From Acidobacteriota bacterium (lineage in GTDB: Bacteria; Acidobacteriota; Vicinamibacteria; Vicinamibacterales; UBA2999): a stretch of DNA of 51,435 bases. The stretch is taken from positions 1 through 51,435 of the forward strand of contig JACPPO010000146.1 in the NCBI GenBank assembly GCA_016190945.1, written 5' to 3'. Both the position numbers and the translations under genes were made by a program. The notes beneath the pieces were generated by a model. The model did no database searches and was not told the origin of the DNA. It saw only the letters and a program-made list of their open reading frames with translations. Of this stretch, positions 38,445 to 51,435 are shown piece by piece. Position 1 is the first letter of the stretch, and every line of letters starts with the position of its first letter.

Positions 38445-40307
38445 TTATTCCTCGATCGTCAGCGTCAAGATGCGCGATCCGGTCACCGCGTGTCCGGTCG
38501 CAATGTCCCATTCGCCAAGCATCGCGCTCTGCAGCGGCCTGAAGCTGCCGCCGTTGCGATCGGATTCCATCACGGCCATCACGGAGGGAGGCAGCGCCGA
38601 GAACGATTCGCCCTTGACGACGGCGCCGCGATCGCGGCCGAGGAGGCGGACGTACAGGCGGTTGTTCTTGCGCGTGTTGTTCAGGACGCGAATCATCTGC
38701 GGCAGACCGCGCGTCTGGAGCGGTTGAACGTGCAGCTCCCGCGCCTCCCACTGCGATAGCCGGGTGCCGTCCGCCACCATGATCGACACCGGGCCGCTGG
38801 CGCTGGCCGGAATCGTCACCGGCAACGTTCTCGTGATTTCCTCACCGCGATACGTCCGCAGCAGCATCTTCAGATCCACCGTGGCGCCGGGCTTCGGGCG
38901 GTTGCCGTCGATCCACACCCGCTCGAGCGTGGCGCTGCGTGGCTGCTCACTCGCGTCGATCTCGAGATCAAGCCGCTCCAGCTCCACGTCTTCAAACGCG
39001 TTGCGAAGCAGGAAATTGATGGGAGCCACGACATACGCCGCCGCGCCGATCGAAGGCTGATCGCCCGTGAAGAGGTCCTCAAACGCCACGTTGCCGTATT
39101 TCTTGATGGACGCCGTGCCGCGGACGACATAGCTGGCCGCGCCGTTCTGGCGCTCGTACGAGCTGAGCGTGTTCAGGATGGAGAGGTACGCCAGCAGGGG
39201 AGTAAAGAGCTGGTCGTTTACCATTGCCATGTTGAACGTCTTCTTCGTCCCTCGCTCCGACGTCAGGCTGATCCGGACGGGGATGAGTGCCGGGCCCGGA
39301 CCGAGCGTCCCCGCGATCGTGGTGGCGCGATCTTGTTGGACGGTCCCAATCACCTCGCCGGTGGTGGCGATCTTCATCGAATTCGCGAGGCTCGGCAGCA
39401 CGGCAAGCACGCGGGCGCGCGTCATTGGGAACTGCGTCGGCCCAAGCCCGTGGAACGGATGGCCGAAGGCATAGACGCGATCGCCGTCCACCTCCGTCAC
39501 GGTGCCGGTCGCACCAAGTTCGAGATCGCCGCTCATAAGGGCGATACCGACGGGATCGCCGGGTCGTAGGGGTGGTGCCGCTACGGGCAAAGCCCCTCCG
39601 GCTGTCTGCGCAGGTCGTGGCGCGACGAGCGAGGACCCTCCCATCACCGGGACGAAACCCCGGTCGCGGAAGGCGGAAGCGATCGGATCGATCACATCCG
39701 CGTCAAATCCGCCGAGCGACAGCGGCGTGGCAATCGGATGAAGCAACGTCCCTATGCCGGCGTTCAACGTGGCGCCGCCGAAGACCCGCACGTCGGCCGG
39801 GTTGTCGGCAAACGGCCCCGTCCAGCTGAACGCCTGGCGGAGCGAGGCGCTCAGGCTTTCCGGTGTGAGCGGGAACCGCAGCTCAACGCGCGCGGCCTGG
39901 CGCCGCGGGCCGGCAAACGTCGCGGCTTCGGTCATCTCGTCGATCGGCGTAATGCCGGCAATCGGCTCCTTCGAAAACTGGCCGAGTGAATACGAAACGG
40001 CGCCAACCAGGCGGCCGTCGATGTACACCGGGCTGCCGCTCATGCCCGCAATCACGCCCGTGTTGGCGAGCGGGCCGCCCTCGAGCCGCGCCAGGATCAG
40101 GTTGCGGCGCGTGCCGATGACGTTGTGCAGCACCCCGAGGATGTGGACCTTGAACTCGTCGAGACGGTCGCCTTCGAAGACGGTCTTGCCGATGCCCACC
40201 ATCCCGGCTTTCAGCTCATCCACGGGAAAGGTCCGGCTCTGGGCCGGAAGGCCGGCGGCCAGGAACAGGAGCAGGGCCAAGGCAGAGGCGAGAGATCGTA
40301 TGAACAT
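38445..40307 (-). CDS. SpoIVB-like peptidase S55 domain protein, exported
   Basis: Signal peptide, GMVGIGKTVFEG, IAGMSGSPVYIDGRLVGAV, AFGHPF. Confidence 0.88.
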   Translation of the reverse strand: MFIRSLASALALLLFLAAGLPAQSRTFPVDELKAGMVGIGKTVFEGDRLDEFKVHILGVLHNVIGTRRNLILARLEGGPLANTGVIAGMSGSPVYIDGRLVGAVSYSLGQFSKEPIAGITPIDEMTEAATFAGPRRQAARVELRFPLTPESLSASLRQAFSWTGPFADNPADVRVFGGATLNAGIGTLLHPIATPLSLGGFDADVIDPIASAFRDRGFVPVMGGSSLVAPRPAQTAGGALPVAAPPLRPGDPVGIALMSGDLELGATGTVTEVDGDRVYAFGHPFHGLGPTQFPMTRARVLAVLPSLANSMKIATTGEVIGTVQQDRATTIAGTLGPGPALIPVRISLTSERGTKKTFNMAMVNDQLFTPLLAYLSILNTLSSYERQNGAASYVVRGTASIKKYGNVAFEDLFTGDQPSIGAAAYVVAPINFLLRNAFEDVELERLDLEIDASEQPRSATLERVWIDGNRPKPGATVDLKMLLRTYRGEEITRTLPVTIPASASGPVSIMVADGTRLSQWEARELHVQPLQTRGLPQMIRVLNNTRKNNRLYVRLLGRDRGAVVKGESFSALPPSVMAVMESDRNGGSFRPLQSAMLGEWDIATGHAVTGSRILTLTIEE

Positions 40308-40447
40308 CGGCTGAAGGCTCAACCTTGAAGATACGGGTAAACCGCTGAAACTGCAAGGCCCGAAGCCCTGCGCTGACGACCTCTCCAAAGCCCAATGAGC
40401 GGAGGGAATGATTGTAGGCAACCCTTGGATCCGGAGCCCTCTGCCCG

Positions 40448-40477
40448 TTGACAGCCGCAGAACCTCTGCGATACAGT
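40448..40477 (+). promoter_or_regulatory. sigma70-type promoter of the aro/trp operon leader
   Basis: TTGACA-N18-TACAGT. Confidence 0.6.
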
Positions 40478-40496
40478 CAGTCCAGTCTTCACGCTC

Positions 40497-40589
40497 ATGC
40501 CGCATCGCTTTAGCTTTTTCCCGTCGCCGAGCTACGCCAGCTACTGGTGGTGGTATCGGACTGCGACTGAAGGGGCGGCCGGCGTCTAA
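40497..40589 (+). CDS. Aromatic attenuator leader peptide, MPHRFSFFPSPSYASYWWWYRTATEGAAGV
   Basis: ATG 40497 to TAA 40589; 3 Phe, 3 Tyr and three tandem TGG; overlaps antiterminator strand. Confidence 0.92.
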   Translation: MPHRFSFFPSPSYASYWWWYRTATEGAAGV

Positions 40590-40616
40590 GACCCGCACGA
40601 CGAACTGAGCCTATAC

Positions 40617-40658
40617 GACGCCTCTTCAGCCCCTGGTTGAAGAGGCGTTCTTGTTTTT
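40617..40658 (+). terminator. Attenuator terminator of the aro/trp operon
   Basis: GACGCCTCTTCAGC-ccctg-GTTGAAGAGGCGTT then CTTGTTTTT, directly before ATG 40659. Confidence 0.9.
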
Positions 40659-42140
40659 ATGACCCATTCGCTGCTATGCGAAACGGTGACCGGCGACACC
40701 ATGGCCGAGCTGACCGCGGCGCGCGGACGTGCGGCGGCGGCTGACATGGTGGAGTTGCGCCTTGATGGCGTGAGGGATCTCGACGTGGCGCAGGCGCTCC
40801 ACGGCCGGCGCGCCCCGGTCGTCGTCACGTGCCGCCCGGCCTGGGAGGGGGGTCGATTTGACGGCAGCGAGGAGGAGCGGCGCGCTGTGCTGGCGAGGGC
40901 GCTGACGCTTGGGGCTGAATACGTGGACCTCGAATGGCGGGCTGGGTTCGACGATCTCGTCCGCGCGAACGGCTCGAGAGTCGTCGTCTCGTCCCATGAT
41001 TTTGCCGGCGTGCCGGACGACCTCTCCTCGCGAGCGCGGGCGATGCGGAGCACGGGCGCAGCGGTGATTAAGGTGGCGGTGACCGCGGCGCGGCTCTCCG
41101 ACACGCTGCCGCTGCTCGAGATCGCGAAGGGTGGCGACGCCGTGGTAATCGGCATGGGTGAGGCCGGCGTGCCGACGCGGCTCCTGGCCTCGCGATTCGG
41201 ATCGCGATGGACGTATGGAGGCGACGCCGTTGCGCCAGGCCAGATACCGACTACCCGCATGGTGGAACAGTTTCGGTTTCGAGCGGTTGGCGCAAGTACC
41301 GCACTGTACGGGGTCGTCGGCGGTAACGTGATGCAGTCGGTGTCTCCGGCTATGCACAACGCCGCGTTTGCCGCGGCCGGACTGGACGCGGTGTACGTGC
41401 CGCTGCGTGCGGCGGATTTTGCCGACTTCCTCGTCTTCGCCGATGCACTGGGCATCTCCGGTGCCAGCGTAACGATCCCGTTCAAGCTCGCCGCGCTGAC
41501 CGCATCGGTGAGTTCCGACGACCTGGCGTGCAGGGCTGGCGCGGCGAACACGATCCGGCGGGTTCACAGCGGGTGGGAGGCGACCAACACGGATATAGCC
41601 GGCTTCCTCGAGCCGCTGGATGCCGTCTGGGGCGCCGACGCTCCGGAGGCGGGGGCGGACCTGAAGGTTCGCCCCTACGCAAGCGTGCGCTTCTCAGTCC
41701 TTGGGGCCGGCGGCGCCTCGCGGGCGGTCATCGTGGCGCTCACGTCGAGAGGCGCCCGAATCACCGTGCATGCGCGCCGCCAGGATCAGGCACAGGAGGT
41801 GGCCGCGTCAACGGGCGTCGAGGCAGGGCCGTGGCCTCCCGCCGCGCGGTCGTGGGACGTGCTCGTCAACTGCACGCCGCTCGGAGGTGCGTCCGCGCCC
41901 GATGCGTCGCCGCTACCGGGCGGGCCGTTCGACGGCCGTCTCGTGTACGACCTGACCTACCGGCCCGGGGAGTCGCTCCTGGTTCGAGAGGCTCGCCGCG
42001 CCGGCCTCCGGACGCTTGATGGCCTGCCGATGCTCGTGGCGCAGGCCGAGCGGCAGTTCGCGTGGTGGACGGGGCGGCGCCCCGCGCGGGGTGTGATGCA
42101 GGCGGCCGCTCTCGCTGAGACAAGCCACAGAGGCGACTGA
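40659..42140 (+). CDS. aroE: Fused type I dehydroquinate dehydratase / shikimate dehydrogenase (AroD-AroE)
   Basis: VELRLD, WEGG, SHDF, IGMG, APGQ, then SPAMHN, SVTIPFK, NTD, GAGGA, DGLPMLVAQA. Confidence 0.93.
   Translation: MTHSLLCETVTGDTMAELTAARGRAAAADMVELRLDGVRDLDVAQALHGRRAPVVVTCRPAWEGGRFDGSEEERRAVLARALTLGAEYVDLEWRAGFDDLVRANGSRVVVSSHDFAGVPDDLSSRARAMRSTGAAVIKVAVTAARLSDTLPLLEIAKGGDAVVIGMGEAGVPTRLLASRFGSRWTYGGDAVAPGQIPTTRMVEQFRFRAVGASTALYGVVGGNVMQSVSPAMHNAAFAAAGLDAVYVPLRAADFADFLVFADALGISGASVTIPFKLAALTASVSSDDLACRAGAANTIRRVHSGWEATNTDIAGFLEPLDAVWGADAPEAGADLKVRPYASVRFSVLGAGGASRAVIVALTSRGARITVHARRQDQAQEVAASTGVEAGPWPPAARSWDVLVNCTPLGGASAPDASPLPGGPFDGRLVYDLTYRPGESLLVREARRAGLRTLDGLPMLVAQAERQFAWWTGRRPARGVMQAAALAETSHRGD
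41652..41678 (-). repeat. GTAG-type REP-like hairpin inside aroE
   Basis: Minus strand GTAG-GGGCGAACC-ttca-GGTCCGCCCC; read in frame as GADLKVRPY. Confidence 0.8.
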
Positions 42141-43606
42141 TGCACATCACCACGTTCGAGCAGTTTCGGGATCTGGCCCAGCGCGGCACGTTCGTGCCGG
42201 TCTACAAGGAGATCGTGGCCGACCTCCTGACCCCGGTCTCTGCCTTCCTGAAGATCGCGGAGCACTCCGATTACGCCTTCCTGCTCGAATCGGTCGAGGG
42301 CGGCGAGCAGGTTGGGCGCTACTCGTTTCTTGGCAAGGACCCGTTTCTGATCCTGCGATCGCGTGGCGGCAAGACGATCGTCGATCGTGCCGGCCAGACG
42401 TCCGAATCCGACAGGCCGTTCGTGTCGGCGCTCCGCGAGCTGATGACAGGCTTTCATTCGCCCTTTGTGCCTGGCCTGCCGCGATTCACCGGGGGCGCGG
42501 TCGGATATCTCGGCTACGACGCCGCGGCGTGGTTCGAGCCCGTGACGCTCCAGCCGGCAACCGAGGTCGAGGATGAAGCGGGTTTCATGCTGTTCGACAC
42601 CGTGCTCGCCTTCGACCACGTGCGGCACCGGATCCTGATCATCGCCAATGCGCGTATTACCGGTGATGAGGATCTCGAGTCGCTCTACCAGTTCGCGCGC
42701 GCGAAGATCGAGTTCGTCGAGCGGGAACTAGAGCGAACGCTGTCGAGAGCCGCGCCCGCTCAGCGTCAGCCGCTCGATATCGTGTCGAACGTCACCCGCG
42801 ACGAGTTCGAGCGGGGGGTTCGCACTGCCAAGGAATACATCGGAGCCGGTGACATCTACCAGGTTGTCTTGTCGCAGCGATTCGAGACGCGGTTCGACGC
42901 GGACCCCTTCACGGCGTACCGCGCGCTCCGCCATGTGAATCCGTCGCCGTACATGTATTTCCTCCGCATGGGCGGCCGGGCCATCGTCGGGTCATCCCCC
43001 GAGATGCTCGTGCGAGTGGAAGGGCGGTCGATGCAGACGCATCCGATTGCCGGGACGCGTCCCCGCGGCCGCACGGAGGAAGAGGATCTGCGCCTCGCGG
43101 AGGAGTTGAAGCGCAGCGAGAAGGAGCGAGCCGAGCACGTCATGCTCGTGGATCTCGGTCGCAACGACTTGGGCCGAGTGGCCGCGTACGGCACCGTGAA
43201 GGTGCCGACCTATATGACGCTCGAGCGGTACTCCCCCGTCATGCACCTGGTGTCGATCGTCGAAGGGCGCCTCTCGGACGAGCACGATCGGCTCGATGCG
43301 CTGGTGGCGTGCTTTCCGGCCGGCACCGTGTCTGGTGCGCCGAAGGTGCGCGCCATGGAAATCATTGCCGAGCTCGAGAACCGCCGGCGTGGCGTGTATG
43401 CCGGGGCGGTTGGCTACCTCGATTTCGCCGGCAACCTCGATTTCTGCATCACGATTCGTACAGTCGTCATTGAGCACCGCCGCGCCTACGTACAGGCCGG
43501 CGCGGGCATCGTGGCGGATTCGAACCCGACGGCCGAGTACGAGGAGACGCGCGATAAGGCACGCGCCATGATTCAGGCGCTGGAACTGGCGCAACAGGGT
43601 CTGTGA
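42140..43606 (+). CDS. trpE: Anthranilate synthase component I
   Basis: LLESV, GDIYQVVLSQR, NPSPYM, KERAEHVMLVDLGRND, FPAGTVSGAPK. Confidence 0.96.
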   Translation: MHITTFEQFRDLAQRGTFVPVYKEIVADLLTPVSAFLKIAEHSDYAFLLESVEGGEQVGRYSFLGKDPFLILRSRGGKTIVDRAGQTSESDRPFVSALRELMTGFHSPFVPGLPRFTGGAVGYLGYDAAAWFEPVTLQPATEVEDEAGFMLFDTVLAFDHVRHRILIIANARITGDEDLESLYQFARAKIEFVERELERTLSRAAPAQRQPLDIVSNVTRDEFERGVRTAKEYIGAGDIYQVVLSQRFETRFDADPFTAYRALRHVNPSPYMYFLRMGGRAIVGSSPEMLVRVEGRSMQTHPIAGTRPRGRTEEEDLRLAEELKRSEKERAEHVMLVDLGRNDLGRVAAYGTVKVPTYMTLERYSPVMHLVSIVEGRLSDEHDRLDALVACFPAGTVSGAPKVRAMEIIAELENRRRGVYAGAVGYLDFAGNLDFCITIRTVVIEHRRAYVQAGAGIVADSNPTAEYEETRDKARAMIQALELAQQGL

Positions 43607-43691
43607 GGGTTCGACGGTGCGAGAGTGCGATCGTGCGATGGTGCGGTGACGGGTCTGAAGTTGACGCCGTCGCACCTTCGCACCCTCGCAC
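43605..43691. repeat. Inverted array of GTGCGA / TCGCAC 8-mer units between trpE and trpG
   Basis: ggttcgac ggtgcgag agtgcgat cgtgcgat ggtgcgg ... tcgcacct tcgcaccc tcgcac. Confidence 0.85.
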
Positions 43692-43703
43692 GGGAAGCGT
43701 TCG

Positions 43704-44270
43704 ATGGTACTGGTGATCGATAACTACGACTCGTTTACCTACAACCTCGTGCAGTATCTCGGCGAGCTGGGCGCGGAGATCCGCGTGCATCGCAACGACG
43801 CGGTGACACTGGACCAGGTGGCTGCGATGCAGCCCGACCGGATCGTCATTTCGCCCGGTCCCGGCCGGCCGGAGGATGCGGGGGTGACGGTTGACGTCAT
43901 CCGCCGGTTTGGACCAACGACCCCGATTCTCGGAGTCTGCCTCGGGCATCAGGCGATTGGCGTGGTCTACGGCGGTACCGTGTGCCGCGCGAAGACGCCG
44001 ATGCATGGCAAGACGTCCACCATCATGCACGATGGCAAGGGCGTCTTCAGGGGGATTGGCGAACCCTTCCAGGCCGGCCGCTACCATTCGCTGATCATCG
44101 CCAGCGGCGACGTGCCGGCCGACCTCGAGGTCGCGGCGCGGACGCGCGAGGAGGGCATCATCATGGCCGTGCGTCACCGGACGTACCCGGTGCACGGCGT
44201 GCAGTTTCATCCCGAGTCGGTGCTGACCGACGAAGGGCGACGGATTCTGCAGAATTTCCTGGACTTGTGA
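43704..44270 (+). CDS. trpG: Anthranilate synthase component II
   Basis: IDNYDSFTYN, SPGPG, GVCLGHQ, RYHSL, QFHPES. Confidence 0.96.
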   Translation: MVLVIDNYDSFTYNLVQYLGELGAEIRVHRNDAVTLDQVAAMQPDRIVISPGPGRPEDAGVTVDVIRRFGPTTPILGVCLGHQAIGVVYGGTVCRAKTPMHGKTSTIMHDGKGVFRGIGEPFQAGRYHSLIIASGDVPADLEVAARTREEGIIMAVRHRTYPVHGVQFHPESVLTDEGRRILQNFLDL

Positions 44271-45292
44271 TGTTCACGGAGCTGCTCGAGAAGGTCGTGC
44301 GTCACGAGGACCTCACCGCAGACGAGGCGGCCGGCGCCATGCGCGAGGTGATGGAGGGACGCGCTCCCGCAGCGTCGCTCGCGGCGCTGCTCCTGGGGCT
44401 CGTGATGAAGGGCGAGCGGCCTGCCGAGATCGTGGGGTTTGCGCGGACGATGCGTGAGCAGGCGGTGAAGCTGTCGGCGCCGGCCGGTGACGTCTTCGAC
44501 ACGTGCGGCACGGGCGGCGATCGGTCCGGCACGTTCAACATCTCGTCCGCGGCAGCACTCGTCGTGGCCGCTTGCGGCGTGAAGGTGGCCAAGCACGGGA
44601 ACCGCTCCGTGTCGAGCCGGTGCGGCAGTGCCGACGTGTTCGAGCAGCTCGGCGTGAACATCGCGGCGGCGCCGGCGGTGGTGGAGCGGGCACTCCACGA
44701 CGCCAACATCGCTTTCTTCTTCGCGCCGACATTTCATCCGTCGATGAAGCATGCGGCTCAGACACGGCGCGAGCTTGGCATCCGCACGGCGTTCAACCTG
44801 CTCGGGCCGCTGACCAACCCCGCCGGTGCGCGGCGGCAGATTGTCGGCGTGCCGCGGCCGGAGCTCACCGAACTGCTGTCCCGCTCGCTGCTGATGCTCG
44901 GGTCGGACCGCGCGTGGGTGGTCCACGGCGCGGATGGCATCGACGAGATCTCGACGACAGGGTACACGAAGGTCTCGGAATGCCGCGCCGGCGCGGTGAA
45001 CACCTTCTACATCCATCCGGCCGATTTCGGGCTCTCGAAGGCGACGCCGGCTGATCTCCAGGGCGGGGACGCGGCGCGGAATGCCGCTATCGTGCTGGAG
45101 ATTCTCGGTGGCACGCGCGGCGCTCCGCGCGACGTGGTGCTCCTCAATGCCGGTGCCGCTCTGTTCGTGGCCGGCCGTGCTGCCAGCGTGAGCGAGGGGA
45201 TCGCTCGTGCCGCCGAGGCCATTGATACCGGCGCCGCGCACGCGACGCTCGATGGAATGGCGCGGAGCTCCCACGCGGAGGCTGCCGTATGA
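44270..45292 (+). CDS. trpD: Anthranilate phosphoribosyltransferase
   Basis: [32 protein letters not shown]; TGATG coupling with trpG. Confidence 0.96.
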
Positions 45293-46086
45293 CCGGCGCG
45301 CCGGACCTCCTGGGCACGATTGTCGCGGCCACTCAGCGCGTCATCGAGGTGCGGCGCGAGCGAGAACCGGCGGTGACGTTGGAGAAGCGGGCCGCCGCCG
45401 CGTTACCATCCGGTGCCAGATTCGAACGGGAGCTGGGGGCGGCCGGGCGCGTGAACGTCATCGGCGAGTGCAAGAGGCGGTCGCCGTCAAGAGGCGTGCT
45501 CGCGGCGGAATACGATCCCGCGTCGATCGCGCGGCTCTACGAGCGTGGTGGCGCCGCGGCGATTTCGGTCCTCACGGAGCCGACGTTCTTTGACGGGGCG
45601 CTCGAGCATCTGACGGCCGTGCGGCGCGCTGTTTCTCTGCCGTTGCTCCGCAAGGACTTTATCGTCGACGACTACCAGCTGTTCGAGGCGCGCGCCGCCG
45701 GTGCCGACGCGATCCTGCTGATCGTGGCGGCGCTCGAGCAGCCCGACCTGGTGCGGCTGCAGGCCCGCGCGTGGGAACTTGGCCTCGCCGCGCTGGTCGA
45801 GGTGCATGACGAAGAGGAGTTGACCCGCGCCGTCGACAGCGGCGCGCGCCTGATAGGCGTCAACAATCGAAACCTCCGCACGCTGCAGGTGGACATCGAC
45901 GCGTCATACCGCCTGGGCGCCAGGATTCCACCCGGAGTCATCGGGGTGAGCGAGAGCGGCCTCCGGTCGCGTGCGGATCTCGAGCGTCTCGCCGCAGCCG
46001 GATATCGCGCATTTCTGATCGGTGAACGGTTCATGACGGACGTGGATCCCGCACGTTCGATCGGCGAGCTGACCAGATGTTCCTGA
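45289..46086 (+). CDS. trpC: Indole-3-glycerol phosphate synthase
   Basis: [30 protein letters not shown]. Confidence 0.96.
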
Positions 46087-46694
46087 AGGTTTGCGGGATT
46101 ACCCGGCTCTCGGATGCGCTCCATGCCGTCGAACATGGCGCCGGTGCGCTGGGCTTCGTGTTCTGGCCGCAGAGCCCCAGGTATATCAGCCCGGAGCGCG
46201 CCGCCGAGATCATCGCGGCGCTCCCCCCTGACGTGGACGCGGTCGGCGTGTTCGTGAACGAGTCTGTGGACGGCATCAGGGCGGTGGTCGCCAAGACCGG
46301 TATCGGCGTTATCCAGTTGCACGGCGACGAGACGCCCGCATACGCGGACAAACTGGGCTGGCCGGTGCTGAGGGCCATTACGGTCGAGCAGGCGGAACAG
46401 GCGGCTGTCGCCTGGCCGCCGGAGACGATCTTTCTGATGGACTCGGTGGACCCGGCCCGGCGCGGCGGCACCGGCTCCACTCTCGATTGGCGGCAGGCGG
46501 CGTCGGCGGCGCGCGGCCGGCGCGTCGTGCTGGCGGGCGGATTGACGCCGGACAATGTGGCCGAGGCGATTGGCACGGTACGGCCGTTCGGCGTGGACGT
46601 GTCGTCGGGCGTTGAGGATGCACCCGGTGTGAAGAATCCGGACAAGGTGGCGCGCTTTCTGACGCGCGCGCGGAGTGCATTTGACAAACACTAA
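46077..46694 (+). CDS. trpF: Phosphoribosylanthranilate isomerase
   Basis: [33 protein letters not shown]. Confidence 0.96.
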
Positions 46695-47952
46695 GTCGGC
46701 GAAGGGGGTCAGACCCTATGACACGACTCGACTCATGGGGTCTGACCCTCCTGTGTTCGGGCGGCGTGACCCGGATGCACGCGGGTACTTCGGCGCCTAC
46801 GGCGGCCGTTTTGTGCCCGAGACGCTCGTTGCGCCGATCGAGGAGCTCACGGCGGGCTACCTCGCCGCGCGCGCCGACGCGGTGTTTCGCGACGAACTGG
46901 ACGGCCTGCTGAAGCACTACGTCGGCCGCCCGACGCCACTCTACGAAACGCGCCGGCTGGCAGGCGATCTGGGTCGAAAGGGGCGCATCCGTATCCTCCT
47001 GAAGCGCGAGGACCTGACGCACACCGGCGCCCACCAGATCAACAACGCACTCGGGCAGGCGCTGCTCGCAAAGCGCATGGGCAAGCGGCGTGTCGTCGCT
47101 GAGACCGGCGCGGGCCAGCATGGCGTGGCGACGGCCACCGCGTGTGCGCTGCTCGGCCTCGACTGCTGCGTCTACATGGGGGCGGAGGACATGCGGCGCC
47201 AGGCGCTGAACGTCGTCCGCATGCGGCTGCTTGGCGCGGACGTGCGCCAAGTGGACGCCGGCAGCCGCACGCTGAAGGACGCGATCAACGAAGCCATGCG
47301 CGACTGGGTGGCCAACGTGACGGACACTTATTATCTGCTCGGCTCCGCGCTTGGCCCGCATCCGTATCCGCTGATGGTGCGCGAGTTTCAGTCGGTCATC
47401 GGCCGCGAGGCGCGGAGCCAAACGCTCGACCAGGTCGGACGTCTCCCGGACATTGTCGTGGCGTGCGTCGGCGGCGGCAGCAATGCGATGGGGATCTTTG
47501 ACGGCTTCCTGGACGATAAAGACGTGCGGCTCATCGGCGTCGAGGCGGGCGGCGAGCGGATCGCGCCGGGCCGACACGCGGCACGCTTCGCCGGCGGCAG
47601 TACGGGCGTGCTCCAGGGCACCCGCACCTTCATCTTGCAGGACGAAGCGGGCAACATCGAATTGACACACTCCATTTCGGCGGGTCTCGATTACGCGGCC
47701 GTCGGGCCCGAGCATGCCTGGCTACGGGACCTCGGGCGCACCGAGTACGCTCACGTGTCCGACGCCGAAGCGCTCGAAGGGTTTCAGACGCTCGCGCGGC
47801 TTGAGGGCATCCTTCCGGCGCTCGAGTCGGCGCATGCGATTGCGTACACGATGAAGCTTGTGCGCGACGTGGCGGACGGTACCATCATCCTGATCAACCT
47901 CTCGGGACGCGGCGACAAAGACGTCCAGAGCGTCGTCGAGGCGCTTCGATGA
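46681..47952 (+). CDS. trpB: Tryptophan synthase beta chain; PLP lysine appears as Gln
   Basis: [18 protein letters not shown](Q)[31 protein letters not shown]. Start TTG 46681 after GGAG, or ATG 46735. Confidence 0.93.
46704..46748. repeat. Inverted pair of GGGGTC(A/T)GACCC palindromes at the trpB 5' end
   Basis: GGGGGTCAGACCC-20 nt-GGGGTCTGACCC. Confidence 0.8.
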
Positions 47953-48827
47953 CGCGGCCTTGGGCACCGGGACGGTCCGCTAATGCGGACCGCCCAGCTA
48001 GCGCTGGCTTGTCGGGTCGCACAGCGACCCGACTTGGGCGAAGGCGGCTGGCCGCCACGTTCGCTCGCATCCGCGCCGGCAATATTGGTCCCGGCCTCGT
48101 GACCTACGTGACCGCGGGCGACCCTGACCTGCCGCGGACGGAGGGCATCCTGCGTGCCCTCGACCGCGCCGGCGCCGACGTGATCGAGGTCGGCGTCCCG
48201 TTTTCGGACCCCCTTGCGGACGGCCCCGTCATCCAGCGCGCCACCGAGCGCGCACTGGCCTCGGGCACGACGCTCGCCGGCGTCCTCGACATGGTCCGGC
48301 GCTTACGAGCCGACCTGCGCGCGCCGATAGTCATATTCAGCTACGCGAACCCAATTCTGCGGCTTGGCGCGGAGCGATTTGCCGACCAGGCGCGCGACGC
48401 CGGCGTCGATGGTGTGCTCGTCCTGGACCTCCCAATCGAGGAAGCGGACCAGTTCCGGGCGCTCGTGGCATCGCGGGGGATTGATACAATTCTCCTGCTC
48501 AGCCCGACGACGAGCGACGAGCGTCTGCGGCGGGCCGCGTCCCTCGGCAGTGGCTTTCTGTATGCAATCTCGCGGCTCGGTGTAACCGGAGCCCGCGACG
48601 CCATCGCGGATGGCGCTGAGGAGATGGTCCGACGGATCAGGGCCGTCAGCTCCCTGCCCATCGCCCTCGGGTTTGGCATCTCGAAGCCGGAACACGTGCG
48701 CGAAGTGGGGCAGTGGGCGGATGCCGCCGTGGTCGGCAGCGCGCTGGTCAACGTCATCGCTGACGCGGGCGCGTCACTCGATCTCAATACGCGGGTAGAG
48801 GAGTATGTGCGGTGGCTGAAGTCCTGA
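47949..48827 (+). CDS. trpA: Tryptophan synthase alpha chain with 30-aa N-terminal insertion
   Basis: [36 protein letters not shown]; ATGA overlap with trpB. Confidence 0.96.
47959..48048. repeat. 90-bp in-frame insertion in trpA containing copy 2 of the double-hairpin element
   Basis: Bounded by GCGGC direct repeat (47954, 48044); homologous to 29212-29292. Confidence 0.85.
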
Positions 48828-49135
48828 CGAACATCGAGGAGCTGCGCGGCCGGATCGACGTCGTCGACGATCAGCTCGTGCGTCTGCTGAACGTGCGGGT
48901 GGCGTGCGCCGTAGAGGTCGGCCGGCTGAAACACGAGGCCGGGCTGCCGATTTACCAACCCGAGCGCGAGGCGCAGGTGTTGAACAAAGTCAGGAAGTCG
49001 GCGACCGAGCTGTCCGGCCCGCTGACGGCCGAGGCGCTCGTCCGGATTTTCGAGCGCATCATTGACGAAGCGCGGCGCGCGGAACGTGCCGCCAGCGTCC
49101 GCGGAGACGGGCTCGGGCCGTCCATCGGCGAATGA
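48812..49135 (+). CDS. Chorismate mutase (AroQ type)
   Basis: IEELRGRIDVVD..LL..R..VGRLK..PIYQPEREAQV. Confidence 0.92.
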   Translation: MAEVLTNIEELRGRIDVVDDQLVRLLNVRVACAVEVGRLKHEAGLPIYQPEREAQVLNKVRKSATELSGPLTAEALVRIFERIIDEARRAERAASVRGDGLGPSIGE

Positions 49136-49178
49136 ACCGACACAGGAAGAGCGGAGATAGAGGAGCGGAGATAACGTC

Positions 49179-50225
49179 ATGATCGTTGTGATGAAAGAGC
49201 GGGCCACTGAGGCGCAGGTCGACTCGGTCATCGCCCGTCTCATTGAGCTGGGGATGGACGTTCACCGATCGTCCGGCGCGACGCGGACCGTGCTCGGGGT
49301 GGTCGGCGCCGGCAAGGTGGACAAGGAGATGATCGAGATTCTCGAGGGCGTCCACGAGGTGATGCGCATCTCCGAGCCGTACAAGCGCGCGAGCCGCAGC
49401 TACAAACCCGAGGACACCATCGTCACAATTGACGACGTGCGGATCGGGGGCGATGAGGTCATCGTCATGGCCGGGCCTTGCTCGGCGGAGACCGAGGAGC
49501 AGTGCCAGGCGTCGGCGGCCGCCGTCAAGCGTGCCGGAGCCAAGGTGCTGCGCGGCGGGGCGTTCAAGCCGCGCAGCTCCCCGTACAGCTTTCAGGGTCA
49601 CGGTGAACCGGGCCTGCAGATGCTGCGGCACGCGGCCGATGCGCACAACCTCAAGCTGATCTCTGAAGTCATGGACGCCAGCCAGATTGAGCTCATCGCC
49701 AAGTACTGCGACATCTTCCAGGTCGGCGCCCGCAATATGCAGAACTACACGCTGCTGCGCGAGCTGGGTCATGCGCGTAAGCCGGTGCTCCTGAAGCGCG
49801 GTATCTCGGCCACCATCGAAGAGTGGCTGCTGTCGGCCGAGTACATCCTGGACGGCGGCAACAACGACGTCATCCTCTGCGAGCGTGGCATCCGGACGTT
49901 CGAGACCGCGACGCGGAATACGTTTGACATTTCGGCGATCCCGGTCGTCAAGAAGCTGAGCCATCTCCCGGTGATCGCGGATCCCAGCCACGGCGCCGGC
50001 CGGCGCGACATGGTGGCGCAGCTGGCGCGCGCCGCGGTTGCGGCGGGCGCCGACGGCCTTCTCATCGAAGTGCACAACGATCCGGACCGCGCGCTGAGCG
50101 ACGGGGCGCAGTCGATGTTCCCGTCGCAATTCGATCGTCTGATGGCGGAGCTGCGGATCATCGCCCCGGCGATCGGGCGCAGCATCTGCCTCGAGGCTGC
50201 CGCTCGCCGTGGGTGGGCGCGATAA
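49179..50225 (+). CDS. aroF: DAHP synthase type I-beta with N-terminal regulatory domain
   Basis: [44 protein letters not shown]; GAGGAG upstream. Confidence 0.95.
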
Positions 50226-50247
50226 AACGCCCGCGGCTCGCGAAGCC

Positions 50248-50312
50248 CCCAAATCCCAATGACCAAGTCCCAACGTGGGTTCGGGTCTTAGGATTTGGAT
50301 CTTGGGATTTGA
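50248..50312. repeat. Inverted heptamer array (CCCAAAT / GGATTTG type)
   Basis: cccaaat cccaatg accaagt cccaa ... ggtctta ggatttg gatcttg ggatttg. Confidence 0.75.
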
Positions 50313-50314
50313 CG

Positions 50315-51181
50315 ATGTCCCCACCGGATTCTCCCGTTTTCCCAAGGGTCGCGATTGTCGGTCTTGGGCTGATCGGCGGGTCGATTGCTTTTGGCGCCCG
50401 CCGCGCGTGGCCTTCGACGCATGTGGTCGCGATCGATCGGGAACCGGTCGTTCGCGCGGCGCTCTCGCGCCGCGCCATCGACGCCGCGGCGGACGACCTG
50501 GCCTCCGTCGCCGACGCCGATCTGATTGTGCTGGCCGCACCCGTGCGCCAGAACATTGCCCTTCTCCGGCGCGTTGCCGCCTATGCCTCCACCTCAGCGG
50601 TGATCACGGATGTCGGCGGTACCAAGCGAGCGATTGTCGCCGCAGCGGCGGCGCTCTCCGAACGGGTCACCTTTGTTGGCGGCCATCCGATTGGCGGCGG
50701 CGCGCGCGGCGGGTTCGAATTTGCCACGGCAAGCCTGTTCGCGCGCCGGCCCTGGATCTTCACGCCCCACAACGCAGCAGGTTCCAACGCTATACGCCGC
50801 TTGTCCGCTTTCGTCACCGGCCTTGGCGCCCAGCCGGCGACGATGGACGCGGCCGAGCACGACCGGTTGATGGCGCTGATCAGCCACCTCCCACAACTGA
50901 CGGCCACCGCGCTGATGGAGGTGGTCGGTGGGGCGGCAACCGCCGGCGGATTGCGAATGGCGGGTCAGGGACTGGTTGACACTACTCGCCTCGCGTCCAG
51001 TCCCGCCGACGTCTGGCGGGACGTCTGCGTCACCAACGCGGACGAGATCGGCAACGCGCTCGACCTGCTGATCGAGCGGCTGTCGGAGATGCGGAGCGAC
51101 CTGCGGCGCGCCGAGATCATCGACTCTGTTTTTGACGACGCCGCGCGCTGGCGCGCGCAGCTCATGAAGGGGAGGGATTAG
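50315..51181 (+). CDS. tyrA: Prephenate dehydrogenase
   Basis: VGLGLIGGS, TDVGGTK, GGHPIGG, HDRLMALISHLPQL, DTTRLASS..WRD. Confidence 0.93.
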   Translation: MSPPDSPVFPRVAIVGLGLIGGSIAFGARRAWPSTHVVAIDREPVVRAALSRRAIDAAADDLASVADADLIVLAAPVRQNIALLRRVAAYASTSAVITDVGGTKRAIVAAAAALSERVTFVGGHPIGGGARGGFEFATASLFARRPWIFTPHNAAGSNAIRRLSAFVTGLGAQPATMDAAEHDRLMALISHLPQLTATALMEVVGGAATAGGLRMAGQGLVDTTRLASSPADVWRDVCVTNADEIGNALDLLIERLSEMRSDLRRAEIIDSVFDDAARWRAQLMKGRD

Positions 51182-51435
51182 CTTCGCAGTACGACGGTGC
51201 GAGGTGCACTTGAGAAAGGTTTGACAGTGGCGTAGCCCCACCTTCCTTCGCACGAACGGATTCTCCTCGGCCCGGACCCATCCGTCGACTTGAATGGCCA
51301 GCGTTCGCGGAATCGGCCACTTTACCCCGGTTGTTGCCGGCGTGAACGTGGCCGGCTGTTTGCGCCCGCGGCAGCGCGGGGATTGAAACGATCGCCAGAA
51401 CGGCGCCTCAGTCTTGACGATCCCCAGAAGTGGTC

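Follow-up and report, generated by a model that had tools for sequence, protein, structure and literature searches.

A putative leader-peptide attenuator before an eleven-gene aromatic amino acid operon of Vicinamibacterales (Acidobacteriota), with Trp as predicted main input and Tyr as probable second input

The DNA described here is the whole of contig JACPPO010000146.1 from assembly GCA_016190945.1, 51,435 nucleotides (nt) in length and referred to below as the window, from an Acidobacteriota bacterium of the order Vicinamibacterales (lineage UBA2999). On its forward strand lies a run of eleven genes of aromatic amino acid biosynthesis that comprises a fused aroD-aroE gene, trpEGDCFBA, and the genes for chorismate mutase, 3-deoxy-D-arabino-heptulosonate 7-phosphate (DAHP) synthase and prephenate dehydrogenase (tyrA). 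The run is preceded by a promoter-like site, a 30-codon open reading frame (ORF) with three tandem Trp codons and a terminator that ends at the aroD-aroE start codon. An initial annotation made from the sequence alone had proposed that this leader region is an attenuator of one long aromatic operon that senses Phe, Tyr and Trp together; the placement before one such operon agrees with the gene content found here. Positions of the features are collected in Table 1, and the three pairing segments are numbered 2, 3 and 4 by analogy with the trp leader of Escherichia coli.

The promoter-like site at 40448–40477 was the one found where 0.1 would be expected in shuffled sequences. Both TTGAC and the TA...T of the -10 element are invariant in a family-level alignment of 19 sequences (A1), and TTGAC lies ~100 nt (60–170) upstream of the Trp run in nearly all of the relatives' loci. 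No sequence resembling a Shine-Dalgarno (SD) site was found upstream of the leader ORF start in the window. Judged from the position of the -10 element, the 5' untranslated region (UTR) of the window leader would be ~13 nt long. The leader start codons of relatives are 38–53 nt downstream of the start of the -35 element, corresponding to 5' UTRs of roughly 3–17 nt if transcription starts ~7 nt after the -10 element; in several relatives, where this distance is 38–40 nt, the leader would be essentially leaderless. The sequence and the ORF listing agree with the initial annotation on three Phe, three Tyr and three tandem Trp codons in the ORF at 40497–40589. The nine codons had been placed within a window of 13 codons, but they span 16 (codons 5–20), and codons 8–20 hold one Phe, three Tyr and three Trp. 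No RNA run that includes the locus was found, but DNA contigs from groundwater metagenomes (three studies; four contig sets compared) carry close strain variants of it. One variant, 40517 T>C, changes TTT to TTC and keeps Phe codon 7, and another, 40589 A>G, changes the leader stop codon from TAA to TAG.

The antiterminator is seen as an inverted repeat of 11 nt between 40567–40577 and 40619–40629 (91%, the mismatch being a G-T wobble), and the terminator as an inverted repeat of 14 nt between 40618–40631 and 40635–40648 (93%). The terminator scan reports a site at 40617–40649 with 15 pairs, followed by CTTGTTTTTA (one found versus 0.4 expected in shuffles), and the ATG of aroD-aroE at 40659 is immediately 3' of the T tract. 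Because the 3' part of the ORF pairs with the terminator 5' arm, it competes with the terminator 3' arm. The initial annotation had described this pairing, a 14-bp terminator with a U tract ending at the aroD-aroE ATG and, as the only GAGG, the one in the terminator 3' arm. All three descriptions hold: the pairing is accompanied by compensatory changes among relatives, the terminator stem has 14–15 bp, and between the leader stop codon and the ATG the motif occurs at 40642–40645 alone. The 196-nt leader has a folding energy of -75.6 kcal/mol (z = -3.63), and none of 200 shuffles folds as well.

Folding of the leader under a ribosome mask, a check suggested in the initial annotation, gave the geometry expected of an attenuator. 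The antiterminator forms with the A site at codons 2 to 19/20 and is blocked from codon 21 on. With Tyr20 in the A site, the probability of 2:3 pairing is 0.83, 0.91 or 0.08 for a 3' ribosome edge at A+10, A+12 or A+14, respectively; in this model Tyr20 would be the 3'-most codon where stalling still permits the antiterminator to form. For a transcript ending before the terminator 3' arm, folding gives an antiterminator probability of 0.70 even in the absence of a ribosome, and the minimum-energy fold of the full-length leader pairs the ORF start with segment 2 instead. A small hairpin at 40535–40549 includes the first Trp codons. It is predicted by RNAalifold at the family level on A1 (six pairs, columns 117–122 with 126–131) and is absent from the prediction on the order-wide alignment of 61 sequences (A2). 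It may be a pause hairpin.

The arrangement is conserved across the order. The aroD-aroE fusion is present in 60 of 61 genomes of Vicinamibacterales, and a short ORF with a Trp run was found upstream of the orthologous gene in all 30 relatives' loci fetched and in most further loci of the order. Removal of duplicates, of four loci that failed simple locating rules and of one without a start codon left 62 distinct leaders. The Trp run is present in all of these (179 Trp in 219 core codons), with 184 TGG trinucleotides in frame versus 24 and 25 in the +1 and +2 frames, and a terminator was located by our criteria in 61. On A2, 94.3% of the cells of the terminator are paired, as compared with 57.8% for the best slid control, and 53 cells have changes on both sides; the corresponding values for the antiterminator are 88.4%, 57.1% and 20. 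The covariation score of neither helix was reached in 500 shuffles. The median distance from the first base of the last Trp codon to the start of segment 2 is 14 nt, and in most leaders segment 2 ends 9–13 nt short of the leader stop codon; with this spacing, a ribosome held at the Trp codons would leave segment 2 free and a terminating ribosome would cover it. Apart from the Trp run and the residues encoded by segment 2, the 62 leaders showed no conserved peptide motif. A scan of 39800–41200 against Rfam (cmscan, E values up to 10) gave six chance-level hits, none of them on 40448–40658, and no leader, T-box or riboswitch family was matched.

The leader therefore has the three structural marks of a trp-type attenuator, namely an ORF with tandem regulatory codons, an intrinsic terminator, and an antiterminator that shares the terminator 5' arm, and the element is very probably a ribosome-mediated (leader-peptide) transcription attenuator. 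The anatomy, conservation, covariation, geometry and codon statistics were read or computed from sequence; the stalling, the amino acid specificity, the transcription start and the role of the SD-like sequence are inferred. The proposed sequence of events is as follows. Transcription would start ~13 nt upstream of the SD-less leader ORF. A ribosome that reaches the stop codon would cover segment 2 (40567–40577), allowing the terminator (40618–40648 and the T tract) to form and transcription to stop just before aroD-aroE. A ribosome held at or before codon 19–20 would leave segment 2 free to pair with the terminator 5' arm, and the polymerase would read through. In this scheme the three Trp codons would be the main sensor, the adjacent Tyr codon or codons most likely a second input, and the early Phe codons possibly a third, such that one leader could report a shortage of more than one aromatic amino acid.

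Table 1. Positions of the leader elements and operon genes in the window
Feature	Position	Strand	Basis or remark
Promoter-like site, sigma-70-like	40448–40477	+	-35 TTGACA 40448–40453, 18-nt spacer, -10 TACAGT 40472–40477; 10 of 12 matches
Leader ORF, 30 codons and TAA, ATG start	40497–40589	+	peptide MPHRFSFFPSPSYASYWWWYRTATEGAAGV
Phe codons 5, 7 and 8 (TTT AGC TTT TTC)	40509–40520	+	codon 5, 40509–40511; codons 7–8, 40515–40520
Tyr codons 13, 16 and 20	40533–40535, 40542–40544, 40554–40556	+	ORF reading
Three tandem Trp codons 17–19, predicted main regulatory codons	40545–40553	+	run in 62 of 62 leaders
Tyr codon 20 (TAT), adjoining the Trp run on its 3' side	40554–40556	+	Tyr at position +1 in 27 of 62 leaders
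Small hairpin CGCCAG-CTA-CTGGTG	40535–40549	+	3' arm, first Trp codons; loop, Tyr codon 16
Segment 2, antiterminator 5' strand CTGAAGGGGCG	40567–40577	+	within the leader ORF, 10 nt before the stop codon
Segment 3, terminator 5' arm, common to the antiterminator	40618–40631	+	inverted-repeat and terminator scans
Segment 4, terminator 3' arm, and T tract	40635–40657	+	3' arm 40635–40648 with SD-like GAGG 40642–40645; T tract 40649–40657
aroD-aroE fusion (type I 3-dehydroquinate dehydratase and shikimate dehydrogenase)	40659–42140	+	Pfam DHquinase_I, Shikimate_dh_N, SDH_C
trpE	42140–43606	+	Pfam
trpG	43704–44270	+	Pfam
trpD	44267–45292	+	Pfam
trpC	45289–46086	+	Pfam
trpF	46077–46694	+	Pfam
trpB	46675–47952	+	Pfam
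trpA	47949–48827	+	Pfam
Chorismate mutase type II (AroQ class), GTG start overlapping the trpA end	48812–49135	+	Pfam CM_2, E 5.5e-24
DAHP synthase with N-terminal ferredoxin-like domain	49179–50225	+	Pfam DAHP_synth_1, DAHP_snth_FXD
Prephenate dehydrogenase (tyrA)	50213–51181	+	Pfam PDH_N, PDH_C

The genes behind the terminator bear on what the leader might sense. The aroD-aroE fusion also matches the NCBIfam domain models for aroD and aroE, although below their cut-offs, an apparent gap after trpA is the type II chorismate mutase gene, and the DAHP synthase matches NF006421 of NCBIfam with 489.7 bits (cut-off 335). Because the window is a whole contig, the end of the operon was read from a genome of the same genus (G001), in which tyrA is the last operon gene and is followed by a gene for an MscS-type channel. 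No second promoter-like site was found in 40000–51435 and no terminator on the forward strand from 40660 to the end of the window. Of 42 relatives' stretches, 36 share the gene order through tyrA, five run into contig ends and one (L153) differs, and tyrA is present within the order wherever a relative's contig reaches it. In each of three near-complete relatives the operon tyrA is the only PDH_N match and the operon DAHP synthase the only one found; the one further DAHP_synth_1 match proved, on a check in G001, to be KDO8P synthase, and no type II DAHP synthase was found in the three. With the sole tyrA and the sole DAHP synthase behind the terminator, a switch that responds to Trp only would, whenever Trp is plentiful, close the entry to aromatic synthesis as a whole and the Tyr branch, and so also the supply of Tyr and Phe. 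Sensing of several aromatic amino acids fits an operon that holds what seem to be the only DAHP synthase and the only tyrA of the cell. Within the trp block, genes are separated by an appreciable distance at one place only, the 98 nt between trpE and trpG (43606–43704), and in relatives this gap is 3–170 nt.

Codons for Tyr are concentrated around the Trp run. Tyr lies inside the run or within two codons of it in 56 of the 62 leaders and accounts for 78 of the 287 non-Trp codons counted there (27%), versus 1.45% in AroDE. Its placement shifts with lineage (WWWY, WWYW, WRWYW, WYWYW, YWWW, WWWYYY), and RNAalifold on A2 gave no conserved helix over the Tyr bases beside the run; taken together, these features argue that the codon, and not a fixed set of nucleotides, is under selection. 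TAY trinucleotides in the leaders number 98 in frame versus 4 and 20 in the +1 and +2 frames. For TTY the numbers are 113 versus 48 and 53, with the in-frame count above the off-frame mean in 41 leaders and below it in 12. Phe is most frequent in the N-terminal parts of the leaders, with 98 in 1182 codons (8.3%) versus 2.8% in AroDE and 98 TTY in frame versus 41 and 48 off frame. TAT makes up 57% of TAY in the leaders versus 25% in aroDE and TTT 55% of TTY versus 24%, whereas in all other NNY pairs the T-ending codon rises only from 18% in aroDE to 28% in the leaders; by these counts the preference for rare codons is specific to Tyr and Phe, and it resembles the use of rare regulatory codons in known leaders. 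Leaders from other families of the order have cores such as WWWFFYF, FFAGFWWYY and WWWWRYEY. Conserved enrichment of codons at places where stalling would favour the antiterminator, which would mark a multivalent leader, is present for Tyr and in part for Phe.

The same codons were compared with operon content outside the order. From the trpE loci of 72 other Acidobacteriota genomes, a script that looked for a Trp-run ORF and a terminator called 20 candidate leaders. Where the operon includes tyrA, Tyr is within two codons of the run in four of four leaders, with means of 3.0 Tyr and 1.0 Phe in a window of three codons to either side; the cores are YFWCWY, YFWYWF, YYFWWYY and YYWWYRY. With DAHP synthase and no tyrA, Tyr is near the run in nine of 13 (means 1.31 Tyr and 0.23 Phe), and with neither gene in none of three (0.33 Tyr and no Phe). 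The association of Tyr near the run with operon content has a Fisher p value of 0.03, uncorrected for relatedness (n = 20). The number of Tyr and Phe codons therefore seems to track the presence of tyrA and DAHP synthase in the operon across Acidobacteriota.

Leaders of this form were called in only 20 of the 72 non-Vicinamibacterales trpE loci (L170–L232), and none of six fetched loci with aroD-aroE before trpE for which the upstream region was obtained (L196–L201) had a Trp-run ORF with a terminator. Leader-peptide control of trp genes seems to be patchy in the phylum or to occur in forms that the script misses.

A number of observations weigh against sensing of all three amino acids as originally proposed. 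The alignment check suggested in the initial annotation retained the Trp run in all 62 leaders and both covarying helices, but the Phe and Tyr positions vary even within the genus. The same-genus leader MPHLFSFVPSSSHASSWWWYSTASGGAARV has two Phe and one Tyr; Tyr13 is replaced by His, Tyr16 by Ser and Phe8 by Val. Tyr13 (UAC) alternates with His (CAC) in the 5' arm of the small hairpin, where the U/C swap keeps the pairing with the Trp codons, and Tyr16 forms the variable loop of that hairpin and is Tyr, Ser or Phe in relatives. By this comparison, Tyr20 and the early Phe codon 5 are the only Phe or Tyr codons of the window that belong to the conserved pattern, and the one or two Tyr codons usually kept should give a weaker response than three Trp codons. 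Tyr is absent near the run in six of the 62 leaders, in three of 11 further leaders read by eye and in four of the 13 leaders of DAHP-synthase-type operons outside the order. The case for Phe is weaker than that for Tyr. Around the run Phe is enriched no more than about twofold (15 of 287 codons), and part of the early Phe signal could come from U-rich, weakly structured starts or from base pairing between UUC/UUU and the GAAG in segment 2, as 34 of 97 Phe codons lie within the best segment 2 pairing. Phe synthesis draws on this operon for chorismate mutase and the common pathway only, and pheA (PF00800) is present in three of three relatives at a distance from the operon. The scope of the counts has to be kept in mind as well: all are over related genomes without phylogenetic correction, the start codons of distant leaders, and hence their N-terminal parts, were assigned by us, and the phylum-wide comparison is small (n = 20) with leaders called automatically. 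Finally, no conserved 1:2 anti-antiterminator was found, the best upstream partner of segment 2 having a median z of -0.3 versus shuffles and a position that wanders. The proposal that the early Phe codons are fully explained as a mimic of segment 3 was rejected, the pairing of segment 2 with the ORF being no better than in shuffles and only 34 of the 97 Phe codons lying inside it.

Three other explanations of the locus were considered. Short ORFs are common in GC-rich DNA, and the ORF listing around the locus contains 149 of at least 25 amino acids within 13 kb, so that the leader might be a chance ORF beside the ordinary terminator of an upstream transcript, with no regulatory coupling. This is very improbable, since the Trp-run ORF is conserved in the 30 loci and 62 distinct leaders described above, as are the antiterminator, the terminator and their spacing; moreover, the upstream gene is divergent, leaving nothing to terminate, and the leader terminator cannot belong to its transcript. 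More weight attaches to an ordinary Trp-only attenuator, an analogue of trpL in which the Tyr and Phe codons would merely result from RNA structure, composition or descent, and expression of the non-trp genes would depend on basal read-through or on internal promoters that escaped detection. The Trp run is the sole universally conserved codon feature, the behaviour of Tyr13 and Tyr16 and the differences within the genus are as such an attenuator would have them, some leaders have neither Tyr nor Phe near the run (for example WWWC and WWWWN), and trpL of E. coli shows that two Trp codons are enough. It accounts poorly, however, for the 56 of 62 leaders in which Tyr is close to the run, in places that shift and lie outside any conserved helix, for frame-specific enrichment and rare codons of exactly Tyr and Phe, for a codon dosage that climbs with tyrA and DAHP synthase in the operon, and for the location of the sole tyrA and the sole DAHP synthase behind the terminator. 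We consider it less likely than the reading preferred below.

The remaining explanation dispenses with Tyr and Phe sensing altogether. Codons that start with U (Trp UGG, Tyr UAY, Cys UGY, Ser UCN and Phe UUY) around the Trp run would report the decoding speed of tRNAs modified by MiaA (isopentenylation of A37), or the peptide would have a role of its own. It is known that miaA affects trp and phe attenuation in enterobacteria. A 2026 paper reportedly ties MiaA to Trp attenuation in Pseudomonas (PMC13434334), which we count in favour of this explanation. Of the 287 non-Trp codons within the run or adjacent to it in the present leaders, 130 begin with U, versus 3336 of 29695 aroDE codons, and 45 of the 62 leaders have Tyr, Cys, Ser or Phe at position +1. 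However, Tyr alone accounts for 78 of the 130, the link between codon dosage and tyrA is not predicted, and no peptide motif is conserved beyond the Trp run and the segment-2-encoding part. We regard this explanation as improbable.

The reading that we prefer, with a probability of roughly 0.6, is that the element is an attenuator of the eleven-gene aromatic supraoperon in which Trp is the main sensor, Tyr most likely the second and Phe possibly a third. The proposal of the initial annotation, a tri-valent attenuator, stands in part. It gains from Tyr near the run in most leaders, from the in-frame rare Tyr and Phe codons and from their dosage by operon, but the exact Phe and Tyr codons of the window are not conserved, and its Phe component suffers from the position of pheA outside the operon and the weaker Phe signal. 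That the leader senses at least Trp and Tyr is on balance probable; Phe as a third input is less likely than not. Because no 1:2 pairing is supported, the early Phe codons could also count, as a race between ribosome and polymerase. In an extended form of this idea, which we put forward as speculation, a three-input kinetic race would operate without 1:2 pairing on an SD-less or nearly leaderless leader; delay at Phe (early), Tyr or Trp (late) codons would free segment 2, and the terminator 3' arm would double as the SD sequence of the first gene. If this were true, one RNA of 160 nt would integrate three aromatic amino acids at the levels of transcription and translation for the only DAHP synthase and the only tyrA, and the mixture of Trp, Tyr and Phe codons across Acidobacteriota would be tuned to the branch genes in the operon.

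The translational part of this proposal concerns the terminator 3' arm, which has the SD-like sequence GAAGAGGC or GAAGGGGC, nearly invariant among relatives. It is plausible that the read-through fold, by leaving this arm single-stranded, may help aroD-aroE translation. Among the 61 leaders, 29 have the aroD-aroE start at most 15 nt from the terminator stem and 17 have it over 30 nt away (the starts in relatives were extrapolated from tblastn and are ATG, GTG or TTG in 39 of 61). Translational gating would be reasonable for about half of the lineages, including that of the window. In the window (40567–40577 and 40618–40648), segments 2 and 4 are both SD-like (GAAGGGG and GAAGAGG), and segment 3 resembles an anti-SD sequence (CCUCUUC). 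By our comparison, the order-wide near-invariance of the bases of segments 2–4 exceeds what pairing alone would require. An SD function is one possible reason, and another is that the released leader RNA acts in trans, as is reported for rnTrpL of Sinorhizobium (PMC6614838).

The element resembles trpL of E. coli in having a short ORF with tandem Trp codons and mutually exclusive 2:3 antiterminator and 3:4 terminator helices, with the regulatory codons ~15 nt before segment 2 and a stop codon placed so that a terminating ribosome covers segment 2. It differs in that the window leader has three Trp codons with conserved Tyr and enriched Phe, whereas E. coli has WW followed by Arg and no Tyr; in the absence of a supported 1:2 helix, of an SD sequence and of a match to the Rfam Trp_leader family; and in the size of the unit, eleven genes that include common-pathway and Tyr-branch genes and not trp alone. 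Arg starvation partly relieves attenuation at trpL of E. coli. The multivalent attenuators of enterobacteria, thr (Thr and Ile) and ilvGMEDA and ilvBN (Leu, Val and Ile), are the closest in logic, with one leader carrying codons for several amino acids made by the operon. Here, unlike in thr and ilv, the amino acids are aromatic, the secondary codons are few (typically 1–3 Tyr and 2–4 Phe) and not in long runs, and the multiple inputs are predicted.

In gene content the closest system is the aromatic supraoperon of Bacillus subtilis (aroFBH-trpEDCFBA-hisC-tyrA-aroE), which is controlled by TRAP, an RNA-binding protein activated by Trp, and has further promoters. In both cases the trp genes are nested among common-pathway genes and tyrA, and a terminator/antiterminator precedes trp. 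In B. subtilis TRAP control acts inside the supraoperon, whereas here a leader peptide precedes the whole unit. TRAP control involves the mtrB gene and 9–11 (G/U)AG triplet repeats in the leader; given the leader-peptide anatomy seen in the sequence, TRAP would be unnecessary here, although conceivable (no search for mtrB or (G/U)AG repeats was made). A classical trp attenuator with a WWW run is reportedly also present in Sinorhizobium (trpL; PMC6614838). The trp leaders of Actinobacteria and Alphaproteobacteria differ from the present one in controlling trpE(G) or trp genes only, and we know of none with Tyr or Phe beside the run. Two papers describe trp leaders of the classical type, with WWW runs, in GC-rich non-enteric bacteria such as Streptomyces and Corynebacterium (PMC1262725, PMC4833913), and in the accessible part of the former no RNA element is reported for the Phe or Tyr genes of Actinobacteria. 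In Deinococcus deserti, attenuator leader peptides, one of them before trpEGD, are described as leaderless and SD-less, starting at or within a nucleotide of the 5' end (PMC4007540). The window leader differs from these in its predicted 5' UTR of ~13 nt, although several relatives would be essentially leaderless by their predicted starts.

In the literature searched, mostly without papers in subscription journals, no trp or aromatic leader of Acidobacteriota or Vicinamibacterales and no leader with Trp and Tyr (with or without Phe) was found. To our knowledge, leader-peptide attenuation is documented almost only in Proteobacteria and Actinobacteria, and attenuators of aromatic amino acid genes are known only as single-input switches (trpL and pheL). 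Acidobacteriota of this order are abundant and mostly uncultured in soil and groundwater. In this order, the entry to the pathway (DAHP synthase and dehydroquinase/shikimate dehydrogenase), the complete Trp branch, chorismate mutase and tyrA lie behind one predicted terminator. If confirmed, the element would be the first multivalent attenuator to act across aromatic branches, and its relatives a natural series for the way in which codon number, identity and position set the weights of attenuator inputs. Annotators gain a recognizable element, consisting of a promoter, a Trp-run ORF and the terminator GCCTCTTCAG...TGAAGAGGC, that gave no Rfam match in the scan.

The gene upstream of the leader (38445–40307, minus strand) encodes 620 amino acids with a signal-peptide-like N terminus (MFIRSLASALALLLFLAAG...) and gives a weak match to Peptidase_S55 (SpoIVB-like; E 5e-08, 33.7 bits). 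Many relatives have minus-strand ORFs with similar hydrophobic starts at the same place, and the synteny looks conserved. Upstream of the -35 element of the attenuator, at 40328–40356, is a block conserved in the family, GAAGATACGGGTAAACCGCTGAAACTGCAAGG, that reads TTGCAG-17 nt-TATCTT on the minus strand. It is found at the same place in a set of relatives (L002–L018) and, in another form, in a second set (L019–L047); distant relatives have TTGACC-17-TATAAC at this place. The block, which was not called by the consensus promoter scan, is most likely the promoter of the divergent gene, whose start codon would be ~14 nt past the predicted transcription start. An insertion of ~60 nt in the window parts it from the attenuator promoter.

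The assembly to which the window belongs is 78% complete and gave no PF00800 match. In relatives, the region upstream of pheA was searched for a Phe leader, and this candidate was dropped: the small conserved, membrane-like ORF found there has no Phe run and is uninformative on Phe control. In two loci (L114 and L115) that ORF (~50 amino acids, MNP...EYAAYTP.WT.IALV.LTGPAMVA.AA.RARAARYS) is directly upstream of pheA, has one predicted hydrophobic stretch and is not attenuator-like. In a third locus (L113, G025:C7), ~260 nt upstream of pheA, there are long, near-perfect short tandem repeats (GGTGCGA or CGGTGCGAG-like) with their complement opposite. The repeats, which are absent in G001 and G031, form a large inverted repeat array just upstream of pheA.

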